UHGV virus genome: UHGV-0258254
DNA length: 10,034 bases
Source: a virus
Strand: one strand, 5' to 3'
Shown piece by piece: positions 1 to 8,066 of this stretch (its first letter is position 1; each line of letters opens with the position of its first letter). A program made the position numbers and the translations under genes. Below the pieces are notes generated by a model that worked only from the letters and a program-made list of their open reading frames with translations, ran no database searches and was not told the DNA's origin.

Positions 1-164
1 CTTCCATCACACCGCCAAAGAATGCGCTGACAGGCTCCCAGTATTTACGGATAAGCAACGCCCCGGCGACAATTGCAGCCACCACGGCCACAACCGGCCA
101 GCTAATCGCCCCGATGGCCGTTATAACGGCACTACCAACCGTCGTGAAGATTGCACCCATTGCG
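1..164. repeat. Direct repeat copy A1 of tape-measure internal sequence (partner 568-731, a few mismatches)
   Basis: Read by eye: 1-164 aligns base-for-base with 568-731 except a handful of substitutions (e.g. catcac vs caccac; ggccgttataacggcactacc vs ggcggtcataacagcactgcc). The repeat may extend beyond the window start. Confidence 0.85.
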
Positions 165-442
165 GCCAGCTCAGCCGCCGCCGTGCTGATGACCGCCGCC
201 TCAAGCGGAAAGCTGGACAAACTGACCGCTGCGTTTAAAGCCTCAGACGGGAAGACCGCCGAGCTGGTAAATATCATGCAGGACAACCTCGGCGGCGACT
301 TTAAGGAGTTTCAGTCCGCTTATGAGGCGGTGGGGACTGACCTGTTTGACCAGCAGGAAGGCGCACTGCGTAAGCTCACGCAGACGGTCACAAAGTATGT
401 GTTAAAACTCGACGGCTGGATCCAGAAAAACAAATCACTGGC
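164..442. repeat. Inverted repeat copy B1 (279 bp) of tape-measure internal sequence; partner 849-1127 in opposite orientation, about 98 percent identical
   Basis: The plus strand at 164-442 is the reverse complement of 849-1127 with about 4 mismatches. The plus-strand translation gives SSAAAVLMTAASSGKLDKL...DGWIQKNKSLA, the same peptide the minus-strand T gene encodes at 849-1127 (with S/T and V/A substitutions). Confidence 0.85.
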
Positions 443-2452
443 TTTGACCGGGGCAATCAGGTTTTTAAACCACTGCCACGCGGCCTGTAACTTTTCACCC
501 AGCCAGTCAAACAGCGGCTTAAGTGGCGTGAACAGCTCCCCCACCGGCGCAAATGCCGCTTTCAGCCCTTCCACCACACCGCCAAAGAATGCGCTGACAG
601 GCTCCCAGTATTTACGGATAAGCAACGCCCCGGCGACAATTGCAGCCACCACGGCCACAACCGGCCAGCTAATCGCCCCGATGGCGGTCATAACAGCACT
701 GCCAACCGTCGTGAAGATTGCCCCCATTGCGCCTGCTGCCGCGATGATGGCATTGATGCCGGTGATAACCGGCCAGGCTACAAGACCAATGGCACCGATG
801 ACACCAATCAGCGCCAGTGCACCACCGACAATGAGGCCGATGGTTGATGCCAGTGATTTGTTTTTCTGGATCCAGCCGTCGAGTTTTAACACATACTTTG
901 TGGCCGTCTGCGTGAGCTTACGCAGCGCGCCTTCCTGCTGGTCAAACAGGTCAGTCCCCACCGCCTCATAAGCGGACTGAAACTCTTTAAAGTCACCGCC
1001 TAGGTTGTCCTGCATGATATTTACCAGCTCGGCGGTCTTCCCGTCTGAGGCTTTAAACGCAGCGGTCAGTTTGTCCAGCTTTCCGGTTGAGGCGGCAGTC
1101 ATCAGCACGGCGGCGGCTGAGCTGGCCTCCTCCCCGAAAATAGTTTTCATGTATTCAGCCTGCTGGGCAGTACCGAGCCGGTTTTTCTCAAAACTGGCCT
1201 GCATTTCTTTCAGAATGGTAAATATTGGCCGGGTGTTTCCCTTGCTGTCTGAGGTTTTCACACCAAGCTCTTTGAGTGCATCCCATGCTTTTCCCGTCGG
1301 TGCCTGCAGGCGGCTTAACACGGCACGGCTTCCCGTCCCCGCCATTGAGCCTGTGATTTTTGCATCATGCAGCGCCCCGACCATTGCGGCGGTTTCTTCA
1401 ATGCTGACACCGGCATTTTTTGCCACAGGTGCGGCATAGGTCAGCGCATCGCTCATGCCGTCAAAATCGGCGGCGGTTTTGTTCATCGTCATGGAGAGAA
1501 CATCCCCGATATGAGCGACCTTATCGTTTGAAAGCTGAAAGGCGGATTTCATCCCCATCAGCAGGGCGGCGTTTTCTTCCATCGTGCGGCGGTTCGCCAG
1601 CGCCATATTCAGCGTGACCGGCGTTGCCGCCTGAATGGCATCAACATCCCCACCCGCTTTCGCGATGATTATCTGTGCACCGGCCGCATCATCCGCCGAG
1701 GCGGCGGTATTGTCGCCGAGCTGGCGCGCCTGTTTGCGTAGTGCGGTCATTTCGGCGGAGTCTTTTGCCACTCCGAGCACGGCCTGCAATTCTGAGTTTT
1801 TCTGCGCAAACTCATAACCGGGCATCAGCAACTTAACTCCGGCCATCGTTCCCGCCGCCGCAATCCCCACACCGGCAGCGCCCACTGAGGCCATATTTCC
1901 GGCCAGTTCCTTGCCTGCCTGATAACGCTGTTTTACTGCGTTAAGTTTTGCCTGTTGCGCACTGACACGCGCCAGCGCGTCACGCTGACGGTTAAGCTGT
2001 GCGGTGGTTTCACTGATACGGTTTTTCAGTCCCTGCTCATCATGTGCAAGATTGCGGGTATTAATTCCCACAACGGCCAGTTCCCGCTGCTGGCGTTTAA
2101 CGGAATCCGTCAGGCGGTTATATTTCGCCTGTAAGTCCTCCGCCGCACGCTTTGCGGATTCCAGCACTTTCGCCTGAGCACGTGTCGGACGTTCGGTGTT
2201 TTTAAACTGTGTGGCAAGGGCTTCGGCCTCCTGCCGTGCCTTTTCAAGTGCATGACCAGTCACGGCGAGCTGTGCACTGGTCTTGCGAAATCCCTCAATA
2301 CGGGATGCCTGACCGTTCAGCTCACGCAGTGATTTTTGTGTTTCCCGGATATCCCCCGACAGCGATTTGCTCGCTGTGCGGATGGATTTAAACGGGCGGG
2401 ATGCCTGGTCAACAGCCCTGAGCAATACCTGTAATTTTACATTGTTACTCAT
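320..2452 (-). CDS. T: Phage tail tape measure protein (P2 gpT-like); 3' end disrupted by rearrangement, C-terminal ~40 codons (320-442) are antisense of an inverted T fragment
   Basis: 710-aa ORF immediately downstream of E/E' with its start overlapping the E' stop. It has a long coiled-coil-like Q/A/R/L-rich N-terminal region and a Gly/Ala/Ile-rich hydrophobic segment typical of tape measure proteins. Its position after the frameshifted chaperone pair matches P2 order. The region below 442 is not authentic T sequence. Confidence 0.8.
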   Translation of the reverse strand: MSNNVKLQVLLRAVDQASRPFKSIRTASKSLSGDIRETQKSLRELNGQASRIEGFRKTSAQLAVTGHALEKARQEAEALATQFKNTERPTRAQAKVLESAKRAAEDLQAKYNRLTDSVKRQQRELAVVGINTRNLAHDEQGLKNRISETTAQLNRQRDALARVSAQQAKLNAVKQRYQAGKELAGNMASVGAAGVGIAAAGTMAGVKLLMPGYEFAQKNSELQAVLGVAKDSAEMTALRKQARQLGDNTAASADDAAGAQIIIAKAGGDVDAIQAATPVTLNMALANRRTMEENAALLMGMKSAFQLSNDKVAHIGDVLSMTMNKTAADFDGMSDALTYAAPVAKNAGVSIEETAAMVGALHDAKITGSMAGTGSRAVLSRLQAPTGKAWDALKELGVKTSDSKGNTRPIFTILKEMQASFEKNRLGTAQQAEYMKTIFGEEASSAAAVLMTAASTGKLDKLTAAFKASDGKTAELVNIMQDNLGGDFKEFQSAYEAVGTDLFDQQEGALRKLTQTATKYVLKLDGWIQKNKSLASTIGLIVGGALALIGVIGAIGLVAWPVITGINAIIAAAGAMGAIFTTVGSAVMTAIGAISWPVVAVVAAIVAGALLIRKYWEPVSAFFGGVVEGLKAAFAPVGELFTPLKPLFDWLGEKLQAAWQWFKNLIAPVKASDLFFWIQPSSFNTYFVTVCVSLRSAPSCWSNRSVPTAS

Positions 2453-2872
2453 TCGTGTTTCCGCTTCGCCGGAGCGCCTTTTCGCGCCATGTGATGAGTT
2501 CGGTCAGGCTCATGGGATACAGTTCTGATGGCGGCCAGTGAAATATCACTGCCACATCCGCCATCAGGTCATCGACCGAGAGATTTTTCGGAAACGTCAC
2601 TGCACCGAGTTCGGCGACAAAAAACCGACCACCTTACCGGCCAGCGCCACAAGGTCAGGCAGTTCCAGCGCGGCGACCTCCTGCTCGGTCAGCATCGGCG
2701 CCGTCATGCGCGGCAGCACTTTAATCAGTGCATCGACTTCGGAGTTCGCGACCGCTGCCAGACTGACACCGCGCAGCGTCCCGGCATTGGGTTTCATCAG
2801 CGTGACCTGTTCGATAACCTGCTCACCACGTTTGACCGGATTTTCCAGGGTAATGACATTTTCTTTATTCAT
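2445..2872 (-). CDS. Tail assembly chaperone gpE+E', product of programmed -1 ribosomal frameshift (predicted 142 aa)
   Basis: I translated the -1 frame by hand from the slippery site: VAELGAVTFPKNLSVDDLMADVAVIFHWPPSELYPMSLTELITWREKALRRSGNTNE, ending at TAA 2445-2447, which overlaps the T start (ATG 2450-2452). 85 + 57 = 142 aa, the size I recall for P2 E+E'. Confidence 0.8.
2597..2872 (-). CDS. E: Tail assembly chaperone gpE (91 aa)
   Basis: 91-aa ORF between tail tube FII and tape measure T, ending GFLSPNSVQ with an in-frame T TTT TTG slippery heptamer. Size and position match P2 gpE. Confidence 0.88.
   Translation of the reverse strand: MNKENVITLENPVKRGEQVIEQVTLMKPNAGTLRGVSLAAVANSEVDALIKVLPRMTAPMLTEQEVAALELPDLVALAGKVVGFLSPNSVQ
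2618..2624 (-). other. -1 programmed frameshift slippery heptamer T TTT TTG (X XXY YYZ) in gene E
   Basis: Minus-strand codons are ggT TTT TTG (G83 F84 L85 of E); the plus strand reads caaaaaa at 2618-2624. Confidence 0.8.
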
Positions 2873-2928: not shown

Positions 2929-3447
2929 TCACAGGCCGATATTACGGCGGTGTTGCTCCAGCCGGTCGACGCCGTTCACCTTCTCAATCATGTTGATGGT
3001 GTCGATTTCGACCAGCTCCTTACCGTCCATCGTCAGCCGGAAATAGGTGCAGACCACGGAGATTTTCGACTCGGTGTCTTCTCCCTGTTTCCCCTCGCCG
3101 GTGTCGATTTCTTTCTGACGTCCACGCATGACCACTTCGACGGCCACCGTTTCGCCGGTATCGTCACGCTGGTAAGAGCCTGCAAAACGAATCGGCACAG
3201 CATCCACACCGGTTGCGGCGTAAAGCTCCCAGATAACCGAATCCGGGAAGCCACCGAGTGACCACTCCATTGACAGCGCATCGTCATCAAGGCCGAGGTC
3301 TACCGGTGCGCTGCCGTTCATCCCCGCACCGCGATAGTTTTCGAGCTTACGGGTCAGTTTTGGTAGCGTGACGGACTTCGCGACGCCCTGATAGCTGTAG
3401 CCGTTCAGAAAGACGTTCATTAACTTGAGTTTGCGCGGCATTGCCAT
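2929..3447 (-). CDS. FII: Tail tube protein (P2 gpFII-like), 172 aa
   Basis: 172-aa ORF directly downstream of the sheath gene. The sequence MAMPRKLKLMNVFLNGYSYQGVAKSVTLPKL... and its size match what I recall of P2 FII. The sheath-tube-E/E'-T order is conserved. Confidence 0.9.
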   Translation of the reverse strand: MAMPRKLKLMNVFLNGYSYQGVAKSVTLPKLTRKLENYRGAGMNGSAPVDLGLDDDALSMEWSLGGFPDSVIWELYAATGVDAVPIRFAGSYQRDDTGETVAVEVVMRGRQKEIDTGEGKQGEDTESKISVVCTYFRLTMDGKELVEIDTINMIEKVNGVDRLEQHRRNIGL

Positions 3448-3459
3448 CGGTCAGGCTCC

Positions 3460-4650
3460 TTAATTGCTGTTAACCGAGGTGACCAGATTTGCCAGGTATT
3501 TATCGGTAATACGCTGGCGCAGGGTCAGGTTTTCAAGAGGAGGCACCGGGGTATAGTCGTAGTCGATATACAGTTTTCCGGCCTTAAGGGTTTCCGCATC
3601 GTTGGATTCTTCGCTGAACCAGCAGGTCGCATCCACGATATAGCCGTTTGTTTTCAGCTCACGGAATTTGGCATTGATGCCGTCAACGATGTCGCGAATC
3701 AGCGTTGCGGTGATGGGCTTGTCCACCGCCCACATGTGCGCCTCAGCCATCGTGTCGGCCAGCACCTGCGCGGTGCGGGTGTAGTTTTCAAAGAGGAACA
3801 GCGGGTCATCAGAGCAGGTACGGTTACCCCAGAATCGGAAACCGTCGCGGCGAATCAGCGTAGTGACGCCTGACTCGTTAAGCAGGTCAGCATCGGTGCC
3901 GGACTCCTGCAAATCCCAGAATACAGATGCGCTGATGCCGGTAACACCGTTCACCCCGACATTGGACAGCGTTTTATGCCAGCCCTGCTCCTGGTCGATT
4001 CTGGCACGCAGACCCAGCGCACGGGCGGTGGCATACGCGGTGGCGGTGGTGCTGGTGACCGTATCCCATGCGAGGAAATCCGGCCAGATGACCATCAGCT
4101 CACGCTGGCTGAAATTCTGGCGGTAGGCTTTCACCTCGGAAATGGTTTTACAGCCCCATGCGCTGATATACCCGAAAGCGCGCAGCTTCTGACAGACTGA
4201 TGCCAGTGCTACAGCCACCTCTTTGGTATCCAGTCCCGGCACACCAAGAATACGCGGTTTAACACCGGTTACCGACTCCGCCGCCAGCAGGGCTTTCAGT
4301 CCGGTGTACTGACCGTTTTCGTCAGTGGTGCCGATGATATTGGAAACGGTCTGCGCAAGTTTCGTTTCTTCGTCGTCGCCGGTGCCGTCCTCCACGCGCA
4401 CAACAACGGTGACCGGTTTTGACTGGTCGGCGATAGCCTGCAACGATGCCGCCAGCGTGCCTTTTTTACCGGCCTTTGCAATTGCGCTCTGCACATTGGT
4501 AATCAGCACCGGTTTATTGAGGGGGAAGGTTTCCGCATCCGCATCGCTGGCCGTGCAGACCATGCCAACAATGGCAGTGGATACGGTGGAAATGACGCGG
4601 GTGCCGTCGTTAATCTCCAGCACCTGCACGCCGTGATGATAGTCACTCAT
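3460..4650 (-). CDS. FI: Contractile tail sheath protein (P2 gpFI-like), 396 aa
   Basis: 396-aa ORF matching the size of P2 FI, upstream of the tube gene. A GGAG ribosome-binding site sits about 9 nt upstream of the ATG on the minus strand. Confidence 0.9.
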   Translation of the reverse strand: MSDYHHGVQVLEINDGTRVISTVSTAIVGMVCTASDADAETFPLNKPVLITNVQSAIAKAGKKGTLAASLQAIADQSKPVTVVVRVEDGTGDDEETKLAQTVSNIIGTTDENGQYTGLKALLAAESVTGVKPRILGVPGLDTKEVAVALASVCQKLRAFGYISAWGCKTISEVKAYRQNFSQRELMVIWPDFLAWDTVTSTTATAYATARALGLRARIDQEQGWHKTLSNVGVNGVTGISASVFWDLQESGTDADLLNESGVTTLIRRDGFRFWGNRTCSDDPLFLFENYTRTAQVLADTMAEAHMWAVDKPITATLIRDIVDGINAKFRELKTNGYIVDATCWFSEESNDAETLKAGKLYIDYDYTPVPPLENLTLRQRITDKYLANLVTSVNSN

Positions 4651-4709
4651 CCGTTTAACTCCGTGGTTAATGGGTGAGTGGTATTTTCAGTTGTGCCGGA
4701 GATGTCAGG

Positions 4710-5303
4710 CTATTTGTCCCGGTTGGCTAAGGGATGACACAATTTATTCTTTGTCGCTGATGAGGGGAATTTCTTATAGAGCGTGGACAGGCCAATATCA
4801 AAAATCAGCGCCACGCGTTGACGAGATTCCCCCGCAGCCAGCAACCGTCCGACCTGCTCCCACTCACTCGCGGTGAGTTTCGGACGTCTGCCACCAATAC
4901 GACCTTTGGCTCTGGCCGCTTCCAGTCCGGCGCGTGTCCGCTCGACAATGAGTTCTCGCTCCATTTCAGCCAGGGCACCCATCACATGAAAGAAAAAACG
5001 CCCCATCGGCGTGCTGGTATCAATAGCATCCGTCAGACTGCGAAAATTAACGCCGCGTTCGCGCAGTTCCTCAACCAGAATGACCAGATGCCGCATACTA
5101 CGCCCCAGCCTGTCCAGCTTCCAGACTACCAGAGTGTCACCTGCTGATAATGTTCTGAGCAGTTTTTTCAGTCCCGGTCTGTCGGACTTCGTGCCGCTGA
5201 TTTTATCCTCAAAAATCCGCTCGCATCCTGCGCACTCCAGCGCGTTACGCTGCAATTCCGTGTTCTGGTCATTTGTTGACACGCGTACATAGCCAATAAG
5301 CAT
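4710..5303 (-). CDS. Site-specific DNA invertase, serine recombinase of the Hin/Gin/Pin/Cin/Min family (about 197 aa; likely start at the second in-frame Met, MLIGYVRVST)
   Basis: The N-terminus MLIGYVRVSTNDQNTELQRNAL carries the catalytic Ser motif. VVWKLDRLGRS, SPMGRFFFHVMGALAEMERELIVERT and the C-terminal HTH ending STLYKKFPSS are near-identical to what I recall of Gin and Hin. It lies next to a crossover site. The ORF track extends it two codons further upstream, to 5309. Confidence 0.93.
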   Translation of the reverse strand: MLIGYVRVSTNDQNTELQRNALECAGCERIFEDKISGTKSDRPGLKKLLRTLSAGDTLVVWKLDRLGRSMRHLVILVEELRERGVNFRSLTDAIDTSTPMGRFFFHVMGALAEMERELIVERTRAGLEAARAKGRIGGRRPKLTASEWEQVGRLLAAGESRQRVALIFDIGLSTLYKKFPSSATKNKLCHPLANRDK

Positions 5304-5358
5304 GAGCATCCCCCTGAATAAAAACCGGAGATGATGCCAGTTGCCCGTTATCTCTGCA

Positions 5359-5384
5359 TTTTCATAAACGTTGGTTTAGGAGAA
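5359..5384. other. Invertase crossover site 1 (hix/gix-like 26-bp site), plus strand ttttcataaacgTTggtttaggagaa
   Basis: Its reverse complement TTCTCCTAAACC-AA-CGTTTATGAAAA fits the Hin/Gin half-site pattern TTnTCnnAAACC flanking a central AA dinucleotide. It is in inverted orientation to the site at 7227-7252. The inner half ggtttaggagaa matches the inner half of site 2 at 11 of 12 positions. Confidence 0.75.
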
Positions 5385-5882
5385 GGCTCAGCATTGCCTG
5401 TTGGCGTACCTGTTCCGTGGCCCTCAGCCACTCCGCCAACAGGCTGGCTAAAATGCAACGGAGCAGCTTTTTCTGCTGAAGAATACCCAGAACTGGCAAA
5501 GGCTTACCCGACAAATAAATTGCCTGATTTACGTGGTGAGTTTATTCGTGGCTGGGATGACGGACGTGGTATGGATACGGGGAGGGCAATATTATCAGCT
5601 CAGGGCGATGCCATACGTAATATCTATGGTGAGTTCAAGACTGTAAACACCGAAAATTATTCAATATGGGAATCAGTAGGCTCGTTTAAGGGGGCAGTGG
5701 TGCCTTTGAATCCCTCAACGAACAATAGTTATTTCTCCTTAATCAGAAGTATGGTGACTGAAAGAACAGATGGCGCTGTTTACCCAAAAGTGATTGGTCT
5801 TGATGCTTCAAGAATTGTTCCAACTGCAAACGAAAACCGTCCTCGTAACATTGCCTTTAATTATATCGTGAGAGCTGCCTGA
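5385..5882 (+). CDS. Silent alternative tail-fibre C-terminal cassette (about 165 codons, no own start; expressed only after inversion fuses it to the constant N-terminal part of H)
   Basis: The frame is continuous through the crossover site (…NVGLGE|GSALPVGV…) and has the same phase as the LGLGE codons at the site inside H. It encodes a receptor-binding tail-collar-like domain (PWPSATPPTGWLKCNGAAFSAEEYPELAKAYP…LPDLRGEFIRGWDDGRG). The ATG at 5331 in the ORF track lies outside the segment and is probably fortuitous. Confidence 0.7.
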   Translation, partial: GSALPVGVPVPWPSATPPTGWLKCNGAAFSAEEYPELAKAYPTNKLPDLRGEFIRGWDDGRGMDTGRAILSAQGDAIRNIYGEFKTVNTENYSIWESVGSFKGAVVPLNPSTNNSYFSLIRSMVTERTDGAVYPKVIGLDASRIVPTANENRPRNIAFNYIVRAA

Positions 5883-6484
5883 TGAATAAAGCCGTATTAA
5901 ATAACGAACTCATTGCCATAAAAGCGGGAGACATTACCATTTATAATTATGATGGTGAAACGCGGGAATATATTTCCACATCAACTGAATATCTTGCGGT
6001 TGGCGTCGGTATCCCGGCATGTTCTTGTTTAGATGCACCAGTTACACATAAAGCTGGTTATGCAATCTGCCGTTCTGCAGATTTTAACTCATGGGAATAT
6101 GTGCCAGACCATCGCGGTGAAGTTGTCTATAACACCGAAACGGGAGAATCAAAAGAAATCACAGCTCCGGGTGATTACCCTGAAAATACAACCACTATCG
6201 TCCCGTTAACGCCATACGATAAATGGGATGGTGAGAAATGGGTGACAGATACTGAGGCACAGCATAGTGCCGCAGTAGACGCGGCAGAAGCACAGCGCCA
6301 GTCACTGATTGATGCAGCAATGGCTTCCATCAGTCTGATTCAGCTGAAATTGCAGGCCGCACGTAAACTGACGCAGGCAGAAACAACCAGACTTAACGCC
6401 GTGCTGGATTACATTGACGCGGTGACGGCAACAGATACCAGCACCGCGCAGGATGTCATCTGGCCTGAACTGCCGGAGGCGTAG
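5882..6484 (+). CDS. Tail fibre assembly chaperone (Tfa/gpG/Mu U-like), cognate to the silent fibre cassette, 200 aa
   Basis: Its start overlaps the stop of the upstream cassette (ATGA). The C-terminal motif LNAVLDYIDAVTATDTSTAQDVIWPELP is the conserved Tfa C-terminal signature, and the gene sits directly after a fibre C-terminus. Confidence 0.75.
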   Translation: MNKAVLNNELIAIKAGDITIYNYDGETREYISTSTEYLAVGVGIPACSCLDAPVTHKAGYAICRSADFNSWEYVPDHRGEVVYNTETGESKEITAPGDYPENTTTIVPLTPYDKWDGEKWVTDTEAQHSAAVDAAEAQRQSLIDAAMASISLIQLKLQAARKLTQAETTRLNAVLDYIDAVTATDTSTAQDVIWPELPEA

Positions 6485-6875
6485 GCCATTCAATATCTGG
6501 AGCACTGGAGGTATCAACCAGTTCCAGTGCGTCCAGATAATCCAGCCACAAATTATATTGCGCCAGTTCCTCACCTTTCAGACGACCAATAGCCGCTTTA
6601 CCAGGCCATTGCCTGCTGTTCATGTGCTCGTTGGCTTCATTAATAAGTTTTCCTTTTTTCAACTCTGCCAATGCAATAAGGTTTTCTTTTGATAAAGGTG
6701 GTTGCTCTGTCAAAACCGGATATCCCTCCTGATTGCTGACTATTTTCATGCCATTATCCTGACCATCCAGTAGTGACAGCCATTCATCCGTGGTTATCTC
6801 AACAGCATCTGAAGGTGCTTTATTTAAATCGGTAAAAAAACCATTTTCTTTTTGTGAATAGAAGTATCTGTCCAT
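6456..6875 (-). CDS. Tail fibre assembly chaperone (Tfa/gpG-like), cognate to the currently expressed fibre, 139 aa
   Basis: It lies immediately downstream of the fibre gene on the minus strand. The C-terminal motif NLWLDYLDALELVDTSSAPDIEWPTPP is the Tfa signature. Its 3' end overlaps the alternative Tfa convergently at 6456-6484. Confidence 0.8.
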   Translation of the reverse strand: MDRYFYSQKENGFFTDLNKAPSDAVEITTDEWLSLLDGQDNGMKIVSNQEGYPVLTEQPPLSKENLIALAELKKGKLINEANEHMNSRQWPGKAAIGRLKGEELAQYNLWLDYLDALELVDTSSAPDIEWPTPPAVQAR

Positions 6876-6878
6876 TTA

Positions 6879-8066
6879 TCAATCTCCAAAAGCAATCCAG
6901 TAAGCAAAAGGATTTATTCCTTGCTCAGTCACAGATGACATCAGGGAAAATTGCGATGGTGAAACAGGTAATGCTGCAAAACTAACCATTGTTGACACAC
7001 CTGACCGTGCATTATCGTACGATGCAACAACACAATAATTGGTATTGCTGAAAGATATCGGCAGGGTGATATTTACAGGTGAGCCTAATGGCCCTGATGC
7101 TGATATTCCCATTTGAATGATGGTTCCATCAGGCAATTTTCTCCAGCGATTAGAACTCGGATTTCTTTTCCAGGATGACATATCCGGTATCTGATTTTCT
7201 CCTGTGCCCACATCCCTTTTCGCCGCTTCTCCCAAACCAAGGTATGCGAGAAGACCAGCTACATCCTTTCCACTCAAATGAGTCAGCGTCTCATCCAGTG
7301 GCTGCTTACCTGACAGCGCATTGTTAATGGTGGCGCTGAATTTCGGGTCATTGTTGATAGCTGCGGCAATTTCTTTCAGTGTGTCCAGCGTGTCAGGGGC
7401 ACCGTTAATCAGAGCGGTAATAGCGGCCTGTACAAACGCAGTGGTCGCAATCCGCGTGGTGTTATTTCCTGCGGCAGGCGTCGGCGCTTTTGGCTCTCCG
7501 GTAAATGTCGGATTATGTTTCTGTGCATACTGGGTATGAGGGTCCTGTGCGGCAATGTGGTTTCTCATCTGGTCATCCACATACAGCCTTAATTCCAGGA
7601 CTTCATCATCCACGTATTTACGGGTCGCCAGTACCACCGACGGGTCGATTTTCAGCGTAATAGCTTCGGTATTCGTGACAACCAGAATCATGCGGATAGT
7701 CTGGGTACGACCGCTGCCTTCCTGCAACTGCGGTTTGTACGTTTCCGGGCAGTTCGCCACCGCAATGAGTACGCCTTCATCATCATAAAGCCCAATCTCA
7801 CGGATCCAGAATCCGCCCTCGTTCTCAGGGATGATTTGCTCCGCAATAATCTGGCTCTGGTTGTTCGGGTCAACACTCAGAAGATTCAGCGGCGCGATAC
7901 GTTTCTGGTTAATCAGTTTTGTCTGTGCCGGGTCTGGTGTCGGCAAGACACCATTCGCATCACCAACGGCCATTTGCGTCAGATTCAGCTTACTGCCGAG
8001 CATCGTCGCGTTAGCCAGCCGTGCTGCGCCCTGATTAGTCAGAATGGCGTAGTATTTCACTGTCAT
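6879..8066 (-). CDS. H: Tail fibre protein (P2 gpH-like N-terminal constant region fused to the currently in-phase variable C-terminal cassette), 395 aa
   Basis: The N-terminus MTVKYYAILTNQGAARLANA…MAVGDANG…GGFWIREIGLYDDEGVLIAVAN…GSGRTQTIRM resembles the P2 H / Mu S fibre N-terminal domain, and TAFVQAAITALINGAPDTLDTLKEIAAAINNDPKF is a conserved fibre motif. The crossover site lies within the codons for LAYLGLGE (about residue 280). The gene sits downstream of I, as in P2. Confidence 0.85.
   Translation of the reverse strand: MTVKYYAILTNQGAARLANATMLGSKLNLTQMAVGDANGVLPTPDPAQTKLINQKRIAPLNLLSVDPNNQSQIIAEQIIPENEGGFWIREIGLYDDEGVLIAVANCPETYKPQLQEGSGRTQTIRMILVVTNTEAITLKIDPSVVLATRKYVDDEVLELRLYVDDQMRNHIAAQDPHTQYAQKHNPTFTGEPKAPTPAAGNNTTRIATTAFVQAAITALINGAPDTLDTLKEIAAAINNDPKFSATINNALSGKQPLDETLTHLSGKDVAGLLAYLGLGEAAKRDVGTGENQIPDMSSWKRNPSSNRWRKLPDGTIIQMGISASGPLGSPVNITLPISFSNTNYCVVASYDNARSGVSTMVSFAALPVSPSQFSLMSSVTEQGINPFAYWIAFGD
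7227..7252. other. Invertase crossover site 2 (hix/gix-like), plus strand TTCTCCCAAACC-AA-GGTATGCGAGAA, inside the tail fibre gene
   Basis: The left half TTCTCCCAAACC fits the Hin/Gin half-site pattern and the core is AA. It matches the reverse complement of site 1 at about 20 of 26 positions. Both sites encode G-L-G-E in the same phase. Confidence 0.75.

Follow-up and report, generated by a model that had tools for sequence, protein, structure and literature searches.

A tape measure gene of a P2-like prophage broken by inverted and direct fragments of a second allele: probably a chimeric join at a sequence end

The closest described counterpart of the gene analyzed here is gpT of P2 (Peduovirus; PF10145), and the closest described rearrangements are tandem inversion duplications (TID), DUP-TRP/INV-DUP structures and MMBIR/FoSTeS events. 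In these events a strand snaps back at a short inverted microhomology and then regains its original polarity behind the point of departure, and a direct duplication flanks the inverted piece. The TID model for Salmonella is reportedly that of Kugelberg and Roth. TID/MMBIR-type events are an in-vivo route to a double template switch, and the TIDs described are kilobases long and arise under selection for gene dosage. Inverted chimeras are also made in vitro, as snap-back or strand-split artefacts of library preparation, as products of phi29 MDA, or as foldback chimeras in long reads. Those of MDA, as Lasken and Stockwell are said to have found in 2007, are for the most part inverted joins that lack the stretch in between. 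Library preparation is documented as a source of local inverted chimeric reads (PMC10908179). In the excerpts of two further sources, inverted chimeric reads are also reported for library preparation or long-read sequencing (PMC13141652, PMC12870357). These sources name three in-vitro routes: fill-in during end repair of single strands that have snapped back, amplification by strand displacement, and long reads that are chimeric (PMC10908179; PMC13141652, PMC12870357). In a genome-wide study of Salmonella, no spontaneous inversion that was verified experimentally had less than 12 bp of junction homology, and below 7-9 bp a junction was indistinguishable from an in-vitro chimera (PMC3411829).

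The window (the whole stretch of DNA analyzed, 10,034 nt) comprised the minus-strand tail and baseplate module of a P2-like (Peduovirus) prophage. Its genes followed the order W, J, I, H, tail-fibre assembly, an invertible tail-fibre segment with a serine recombinase, FI, FII, E/E', and T, which is like the W-J-I-H-G...FI-FII-E/E'-T order of P2. Many E. coli prophages shared 97-99% identity with the window, as did phages such as fiAA91-ss and L-413C. T was identified by the Pfam domain PhageMin_Tail (PF10145; aa 239-440, E=1.9e-45) and by its place directly downstream of E/E' in the P2-type tail module, and it was collinear with the annotated T of fiAA91-ss and of E. coli prophages. Over its first 671 codons it shared 99-100% identity with T of P2-like prophages. 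All relatives examined, whether annotated or gene-called, have a T of 815 aa with U, D, and ogr behind it. The window T departed from this arrangement. The minus-strand ORF 320..2452 encodes 710 aa; it matched intact T through aa 671 (...WQWFKNLIAPVKA), then continued with 39 antisense-derived residues and stopped at 320-322, and no 815-aa T followed by U, D, and ogr was present in the window. A preliminary description of this DNA had read T as authentic down to about 443, followed by some 40 antisense codons and a stop at 320, and had set the 710 aa against roughly 815 aa in P2. Our results agree on each of these points, and the alignment to intact T genes that it proposed for defining the missing C-terminal region showed that the ORF lacks the last ~144 codons and has the 39 nonsense codons in their place. 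Look-ups of the H, FI, and J proteins led only to relatives with a normal 815-aa T. The FI and J proteins are widespread and were found in thousands of blocks.

Positions 164-442 were the reverse complement of 849-1127 over 279 nt, with 272/279 identical (97.5%), 7 substitutions, and 0 gaps, which bears out the figure of about 98% given in the preliminary description. The repeat could be extended without gaps to 164-449 and 842-1127 at 97%, and its arms are separated by a spacer of 406 nt (443-848). As the remaining inverted repeats within the window were at most 24 nt long, at 71-83% identity, a repeat of 279 nt is far beyond chance. Another repeat, absent from the preliminary description, was found at the left edge, where 1-164 directly repeats 568-731 with 96% identity. 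This piece is T-sense and shares its frame with 568-731 (offset 567 = 3 x 189). T in the window therefore runs in sense (2452->443), in antisense (442->164), and again in sense (164->1), a zig-zag with two junctions. The features of the locus are as follows.

443..2452, minus strand: resident T, codons 1-671 ('allele 1'), collinear with intact 815-aa T genes, Pfam PF10145
439..442: junction 1, position 3001 of the intact-T locus L001 joined to inverted T at its position 3411, TGGC
164..442, plus strand: inverted fragment of a second T allele; the plus strand is T-sense, aa ~442-534, and the minus-strand reading gives 39 nonsense codons
320..322, minus strand: stop codon of the 710-aa T ORF, within the inverted fragment
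164: junction 2, inverted T (L001 3689) joined to sense T at 3293, 1-nt G
1..164, minus strand: sense, in-frame fragment of a second T allele (aa ~574-628), truncated at the window edge, copy of 568-731
849..1127, minus strand: resident counterpart of the inverted fragment (T aa 442-534), 100% identical to the related loci L001, L005, and L010
568..731, minus strand: resident counterpart of the direct fragment (T aa ~574-628), 96% identical to 1-164

The junctions were resolved by aligning three sequences, the window, intact T, and the reverse complement of T, and coordinates of intact T are those of L001 (T = 5014→2567). Window 439-2452 (resident T) corresponded to 3001-5014 in sense, window 164-442 (inverted piece) to 3689→3411 in inverted orientation, and window 1-171 (left-edge piece) to 3130-3299 in sense. 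Followed in the T-sense direction, the path goes down to 3001, back 410 nt, through 279 nt reversed, across a 396-nt jump, and forward from 3293. The first 164 nt resume T in sense and in frame (their translation reads AAMGAIFTTVGSAVITAIGAISWPVV...), so the 3' end of T may sit past the window edge, and the change would then be an insertion and not a replacement. If T does continue left of the window, the lesion would be a 572-nt insertion at 3001/3000, made of 279 nt inverted and 293 nt directly duplicated.

Both junctions were non-homologous, with microhomologies of 4 nt (TGGC, 439-442) and 1 nt (G, 164). A de Bruijn-graph mis-join through a shared k-mer was rejected as the sole cause, because the strands share only these 4 nt and 1 nt; an artefact of this kind requires a chimeric molecule. 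All three pieces lay inside 700 nt of one gene, which favours a polymerase template switch over random ligation. The sense-antisense-sense order, with microhomology TGGC/GCCA at junction 1 and G at junction 2, is that of TID/MMBIR events, and the locus shares with TID, DUP-TRP/INV-DUP, and MMBIR/FoSTeS the snap-back at a short inverted microhomology with polarity regained behind the departure point, and the direct duplication flanking the inverted piece. Unlike the TIDs described, the putative T event is confined to 572 nt, disrupts a gene, and draws on two alleles. The copies were also not identical, as those of one molecule would be at formation in TID/MMBIR; they differed at 13 natural polymorphic sites and matched different alleles. 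Copies that match different extant alleles need either two templates or later recombination.

The left-hand pieces differed from their resident counterparts at 13 positions, all substitutions and no indels. Ten of the 13 fell at codon position 3 of the T frame and 9 were synonymous (binomial p for >=10/13 at one codon position ~0.002); for 164-442 against 849-1127 the share at position 3 was 5/7. The inverted piece (164-442) matched T of E. coli 1217KP (L014) at 100% identity and the LS45 group at 99.6%. The LS45 group was thus near-best for this piece and was also the best match of 1-164, at 98.8%, and the remaining sites of 1-164, positions 7 and 122, are present in other natural alleles. 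The resident copy gave a different picture: 849-1127 was 100% identical to L001, L005, and L010, 849-2452 was 99.8-100% identical to the same loci (1128-2452 alone 99.8-99.9%), and the window from 439 was collinear with L001 3001-3962 at 99.2% identity. As 164-442 and 849-1127 are each 100% identical to different extant alleles, and as their differences are position-3-biased natural polymorphisms, the left 442 nt derive from a second, functional-type P2-like T allele. Sequencing error was rejected as the source of the copy differences because of the position-3 bias and because every variant is found in other natural alleles. The preliminary description had taken the inverted piece to be a duplication of the gene's own coding sequence. 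Its reading of T as interrupted after ~671 codons stands; the own-sequence origin does not, given the foreign-allele match.

Foreign-allele pieces imply that a mixed template, with a second T allele, was present in the sample. E. coli records with more than one T copy made up at most ~14% of the matching records (1,835 places in 1,607 records), and the 3' thirds of T were heavily mosaic among relatives. Resident copy and foreign pieces first differ at base 574, and 443-496 of the window shows no difference from 1217KP. Judged from these bases, the allele switch need not coincide with junction 1, and the zig-zag could have arisen inside one molecule of the foreign allele. The foreign zig-zag could then have been joined to the resident allele via shared sequence, by homologous recombination in vivo or by assembly.

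The arrangement was a singleton among ~1,800 T copies. Among the 1,623 complete E. coli genomes with a T match, none had a place covering at least 80% of window 1-620. None of the 97 phage records had the arrangement, and their coverage of 1-2500 was at most 90%, made up of 439-2500 and the repeated piece. Junction 30-mers (for junction 2 in metagenome contigs, a 23-mer) gave 0 matches in viral, genome, and metagenome contig collections, and an exact look-up of the 710-aa product found none on record. The T-bearing related loci retrieved had no inverted repeat of at least 100 nt in T or close to it. A natural internal repeat of T that predisposes it to rearrangement was rejected on this result. 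The sole inverted repeat of at least 100 nt, in L011, lay in the invertible tail-fibre region of a locus without T.

The arms of the repeat are 97.5% identical and belong to the same gene, as would be expected of a self-duplication of resident T whose copies later diverged in a decaying prophage. Decay would, however, strike the codon positions equally, whereas 10/13 differences were at position 3 and 9 were synonymous, and random divergence cannot yield 100% identity of each copy to an independent extant allele. Post-duplication divergence of a self copy was rejected on these two grounds, and we consider such an origin highly improbable. The least credible proposal of all, to which we give practically no weight, is a programmed element, be it a diversity-generating retroelement, a phase switch of T driven by an invertase or by RecA, or a cruciform with a regulatory role. 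Such an element would be in keeping with the long inverted repeat within the gene and with the serine recombinase encoded 4 kb away, but the arrangement is conserved in no relative. The seven repeat differences (G/A, C/T, T/C, A/G, T/G, G/C, A/G) showed no restriction to adenine, whichever strand was read and whichever copy was taken as template, and the window had no reverse transcriptase ORF (its sizeable ORFs fit the P2 tail and baseplate order, and six were Pfam-confirmed). A diversity-generating retroelement, which the preliminary description had already dismissed from the mismatches, is rejected for both reasons. The core AAACCNNGGTTT is typical of Gin/Cin/Hin-type crossover sites. It matched the window only at 5366-5377 and 7234-7245, with one mismatch each, and these sites flank the tail-fibre segment; near 164, 442, 849, or 1127 there was no match. 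Action of the neighbouring serine recombinase was rejected because the T junctions lack a crossover-type site. Inversion of 443-848 between the 279-nt arms, which the preliminary description suggested could be mediated by RecA, would put T in antisense even earlier, and neither orientation would give an intact T. No functional element is indicated.

The reading towards which we lean is that the left 442 nt are a chimeric molecule or an assembly join at the sequence end, and probably not the organism's T. A strand copying T in the sense direction would have left its template at 3001. Its 3' end, GCCA, would have primed on TGGC 410 nt upstream on a sense strand by snap-back, and the snapped-back strand would have copied 279 nt in reverse. 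At a second switch, with 1-nt homology, sense synthesis would have resumed 396 nt away, on an antisense template 292 nt behind the departure point. Both copied pieces carry the sequence of a second P2-like T allele, which must have been in the same sample, in a second prophage or a second strain. The likely setting is in vitro, as a snap-back or strand-displacement chimera from library preparation or amplification or as a chimeric long read, and the chimera would have entered the consensus at a sequence end, where two near-identical T genes break assembly. We infer that the switching took place in the tube or the assembler rather than in the cell. Several observations favour an artefact: the 4-nt and 1-nt junction homologies lie in the range that in Salmonella is indistinguishable from in-vitro chimeras, the arrangement is a singleton, a second allele is expected where near-identical prophage genes confound assembly, and no part of the anomaly is more than 442 nt from the window edge, a putative contig end. 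The window length is compatible with a whole contig. Like in-vitro inverted chimeras, the T pieces join opposite strands at sites a few hundred nt apart in one locus, with microhomology of 0 to a few nt, and occur as a singleton. Classic foldback reads differ in that they turn at a fragment end and form a perfect palindrome, whereas the T turn skips 410 nt. T also differs from in-vitro inverted chimeras in its two serial junctions and in that the copied pieces carry an allele unlike the adjoining gene. Other points stand against an artefact. Two junctions 279 nt apart would need a doubly chimeric molecule or two successive chimeric reads, and assemblers usually prune the low-coverage paths of such chimeras. 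The bases carry no error signature, as the differences are all natural polymorphisms without indels. An identical double template switch can also happen in vivo.

Such an in-vivo event is a possibility we take seriously, though we hold it to be the less probable. It would be a one-off rearrangement, a double template switch between two co-resident P2-like phages in a double lysogen or after superinfection. In the cell, a T-sense strand would snap back at the 4-nt inverted microhomology, copy 279 nt of the other phage's T in reverse, and return to the other phage's template 292 nt behind its departure point. The product would be a hybrid prophage whose T carries a 572-nt insertion and encodes 710 aa, predicted to be unable to build its own tail. 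In a variant, a single phage would have undergone the event, and what lies to the right of ~443-573 would have been exchanged afterwards by homologous recombination. The sense-antisense-sense order with direct duplication of T 3001-3293 is what a snap-back and return switch predict, the third piece is in sense and in frame, as fits a gene continuing past the window, and the confinement of all pieces to 700 nt of one gene points to a template switch and not to random ligation. Co-resident P2-like T genes are fairly common, and the mosaic 3' thirds of T make later recombination plausible. The sequence shows neither indels nor private errors, and disrupted tail modules are not foreign to these prophages, since P2-like tail modules broken by IS66 or IS21 insertions exist in complete genomes. 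Nevertheless, the rearrangement was absent from every other genome or contig searched, and its 4-nt and 1-nt homologies are below those of the verified Salmonella spontaneous inversions. It needs two phages per cell and two illegitimate switches, and the zero decay of the inverted piece against an extant allele would make the event very recent. That a natural copy-choice recombinant was packaged with a helper phage's tails and fixed as a tail-defective hybrid prophage is a proposal we advance only tentatively. The preliminary description had named a second P2-like prophage and an assembly chimera among its alternatives, and both are favoured by the evidence above.

Whether artefact or one-off scar, the arrangement is ordinary and is not a biological device, and it implies no new mechanism or function. 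If the chimeric join that we favour is correct, sequence ends in near-identical co-resident prophage genes may carry chimeric tails, and such tails mimic gene truncations and long inverted repeats. A genuine arrangement would amount to one inactivating scar in a single P2-like prophage, which is then predicted to make no tails of its own. It would also be a rare natural event of the tandem-inversion-duplication type between two phage genomes, resolved to the base pair, and would illustrate microhomology-mediated double template switching between co-resident phages.

The rearranged end of the tape-measure gene T carries a plus-strand open reading frame of 285 aa (114-971). Within it, the inverted T fragment (164-442) is read in the frame that T itself uses, which yields T aa ~442-534, and both flanks of this fragment are antisense sequence without stops. 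This open reading frame is a by-product of the T rearrangement, and a gene caller could take it for a real gene.

Two overlapping open reading frames were found next to the start of T:

2597-2872, minus strand: E, upstream of T
2445-2600, minus strand: E', overlapping E and the T start

Together (2445-2872, minus strand) they form the usual P2 E/E+E' chaperone pair, with a putative frameshift. Positions 4710-7345 of the window make up a Mu G / P1 C type invertible tail-fibre segment. The features in it or overlapping it are:

4710-5309, minus strand: serine recombinase (Pfam Resolvase and HTH_7)
5331-5882, plus strand (opposite to the recombinase): alternative C-terminal part of the fibre, carrying a Collar domain
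5366-5377 and 7234-7245: candidate crossover cores
5882-6484 (plus strand) and 6456-6875 (minus strand): two tail-fibre assembly genes in opposing orientations
6879-8066, minus strand: H, the expressed fibre gene, with a terminal Gp53-like_C domain

A related draft contig (L011, GCA_046043755.1) terminates within the invertible tail-fibre segment, in a 135 nt inverted repeat (99% identity, arms at 10707-10841 and 12682-12816), which shows that inverted repeats are common break points for contigs of this P2-like prophage family. A sheath (FI) protein identical to that of the window was present in 3,689 collection blocks, and in 855 of these the longest carrying contig was just 5-10 kb; public draft assemblies thus very often split P2-like tail modules. 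In complete genomes, genuine tail-module disruptions typically take the form of IS insertions, and some otherwise near-identical prophages carried IS21-family or IS66-family elements in the tail module (12998-15300 in the related locus L005; also the complete-genome matches H74 and H81).

Close relatives show strong mosaicism in the 3' third of T. Over the 406 nt of 443-848 there were 6-24 differences, even where the locus matched 849-2452 at 99.8-100% identity. This mosaicism indicates that P2-like T genes recombine often.
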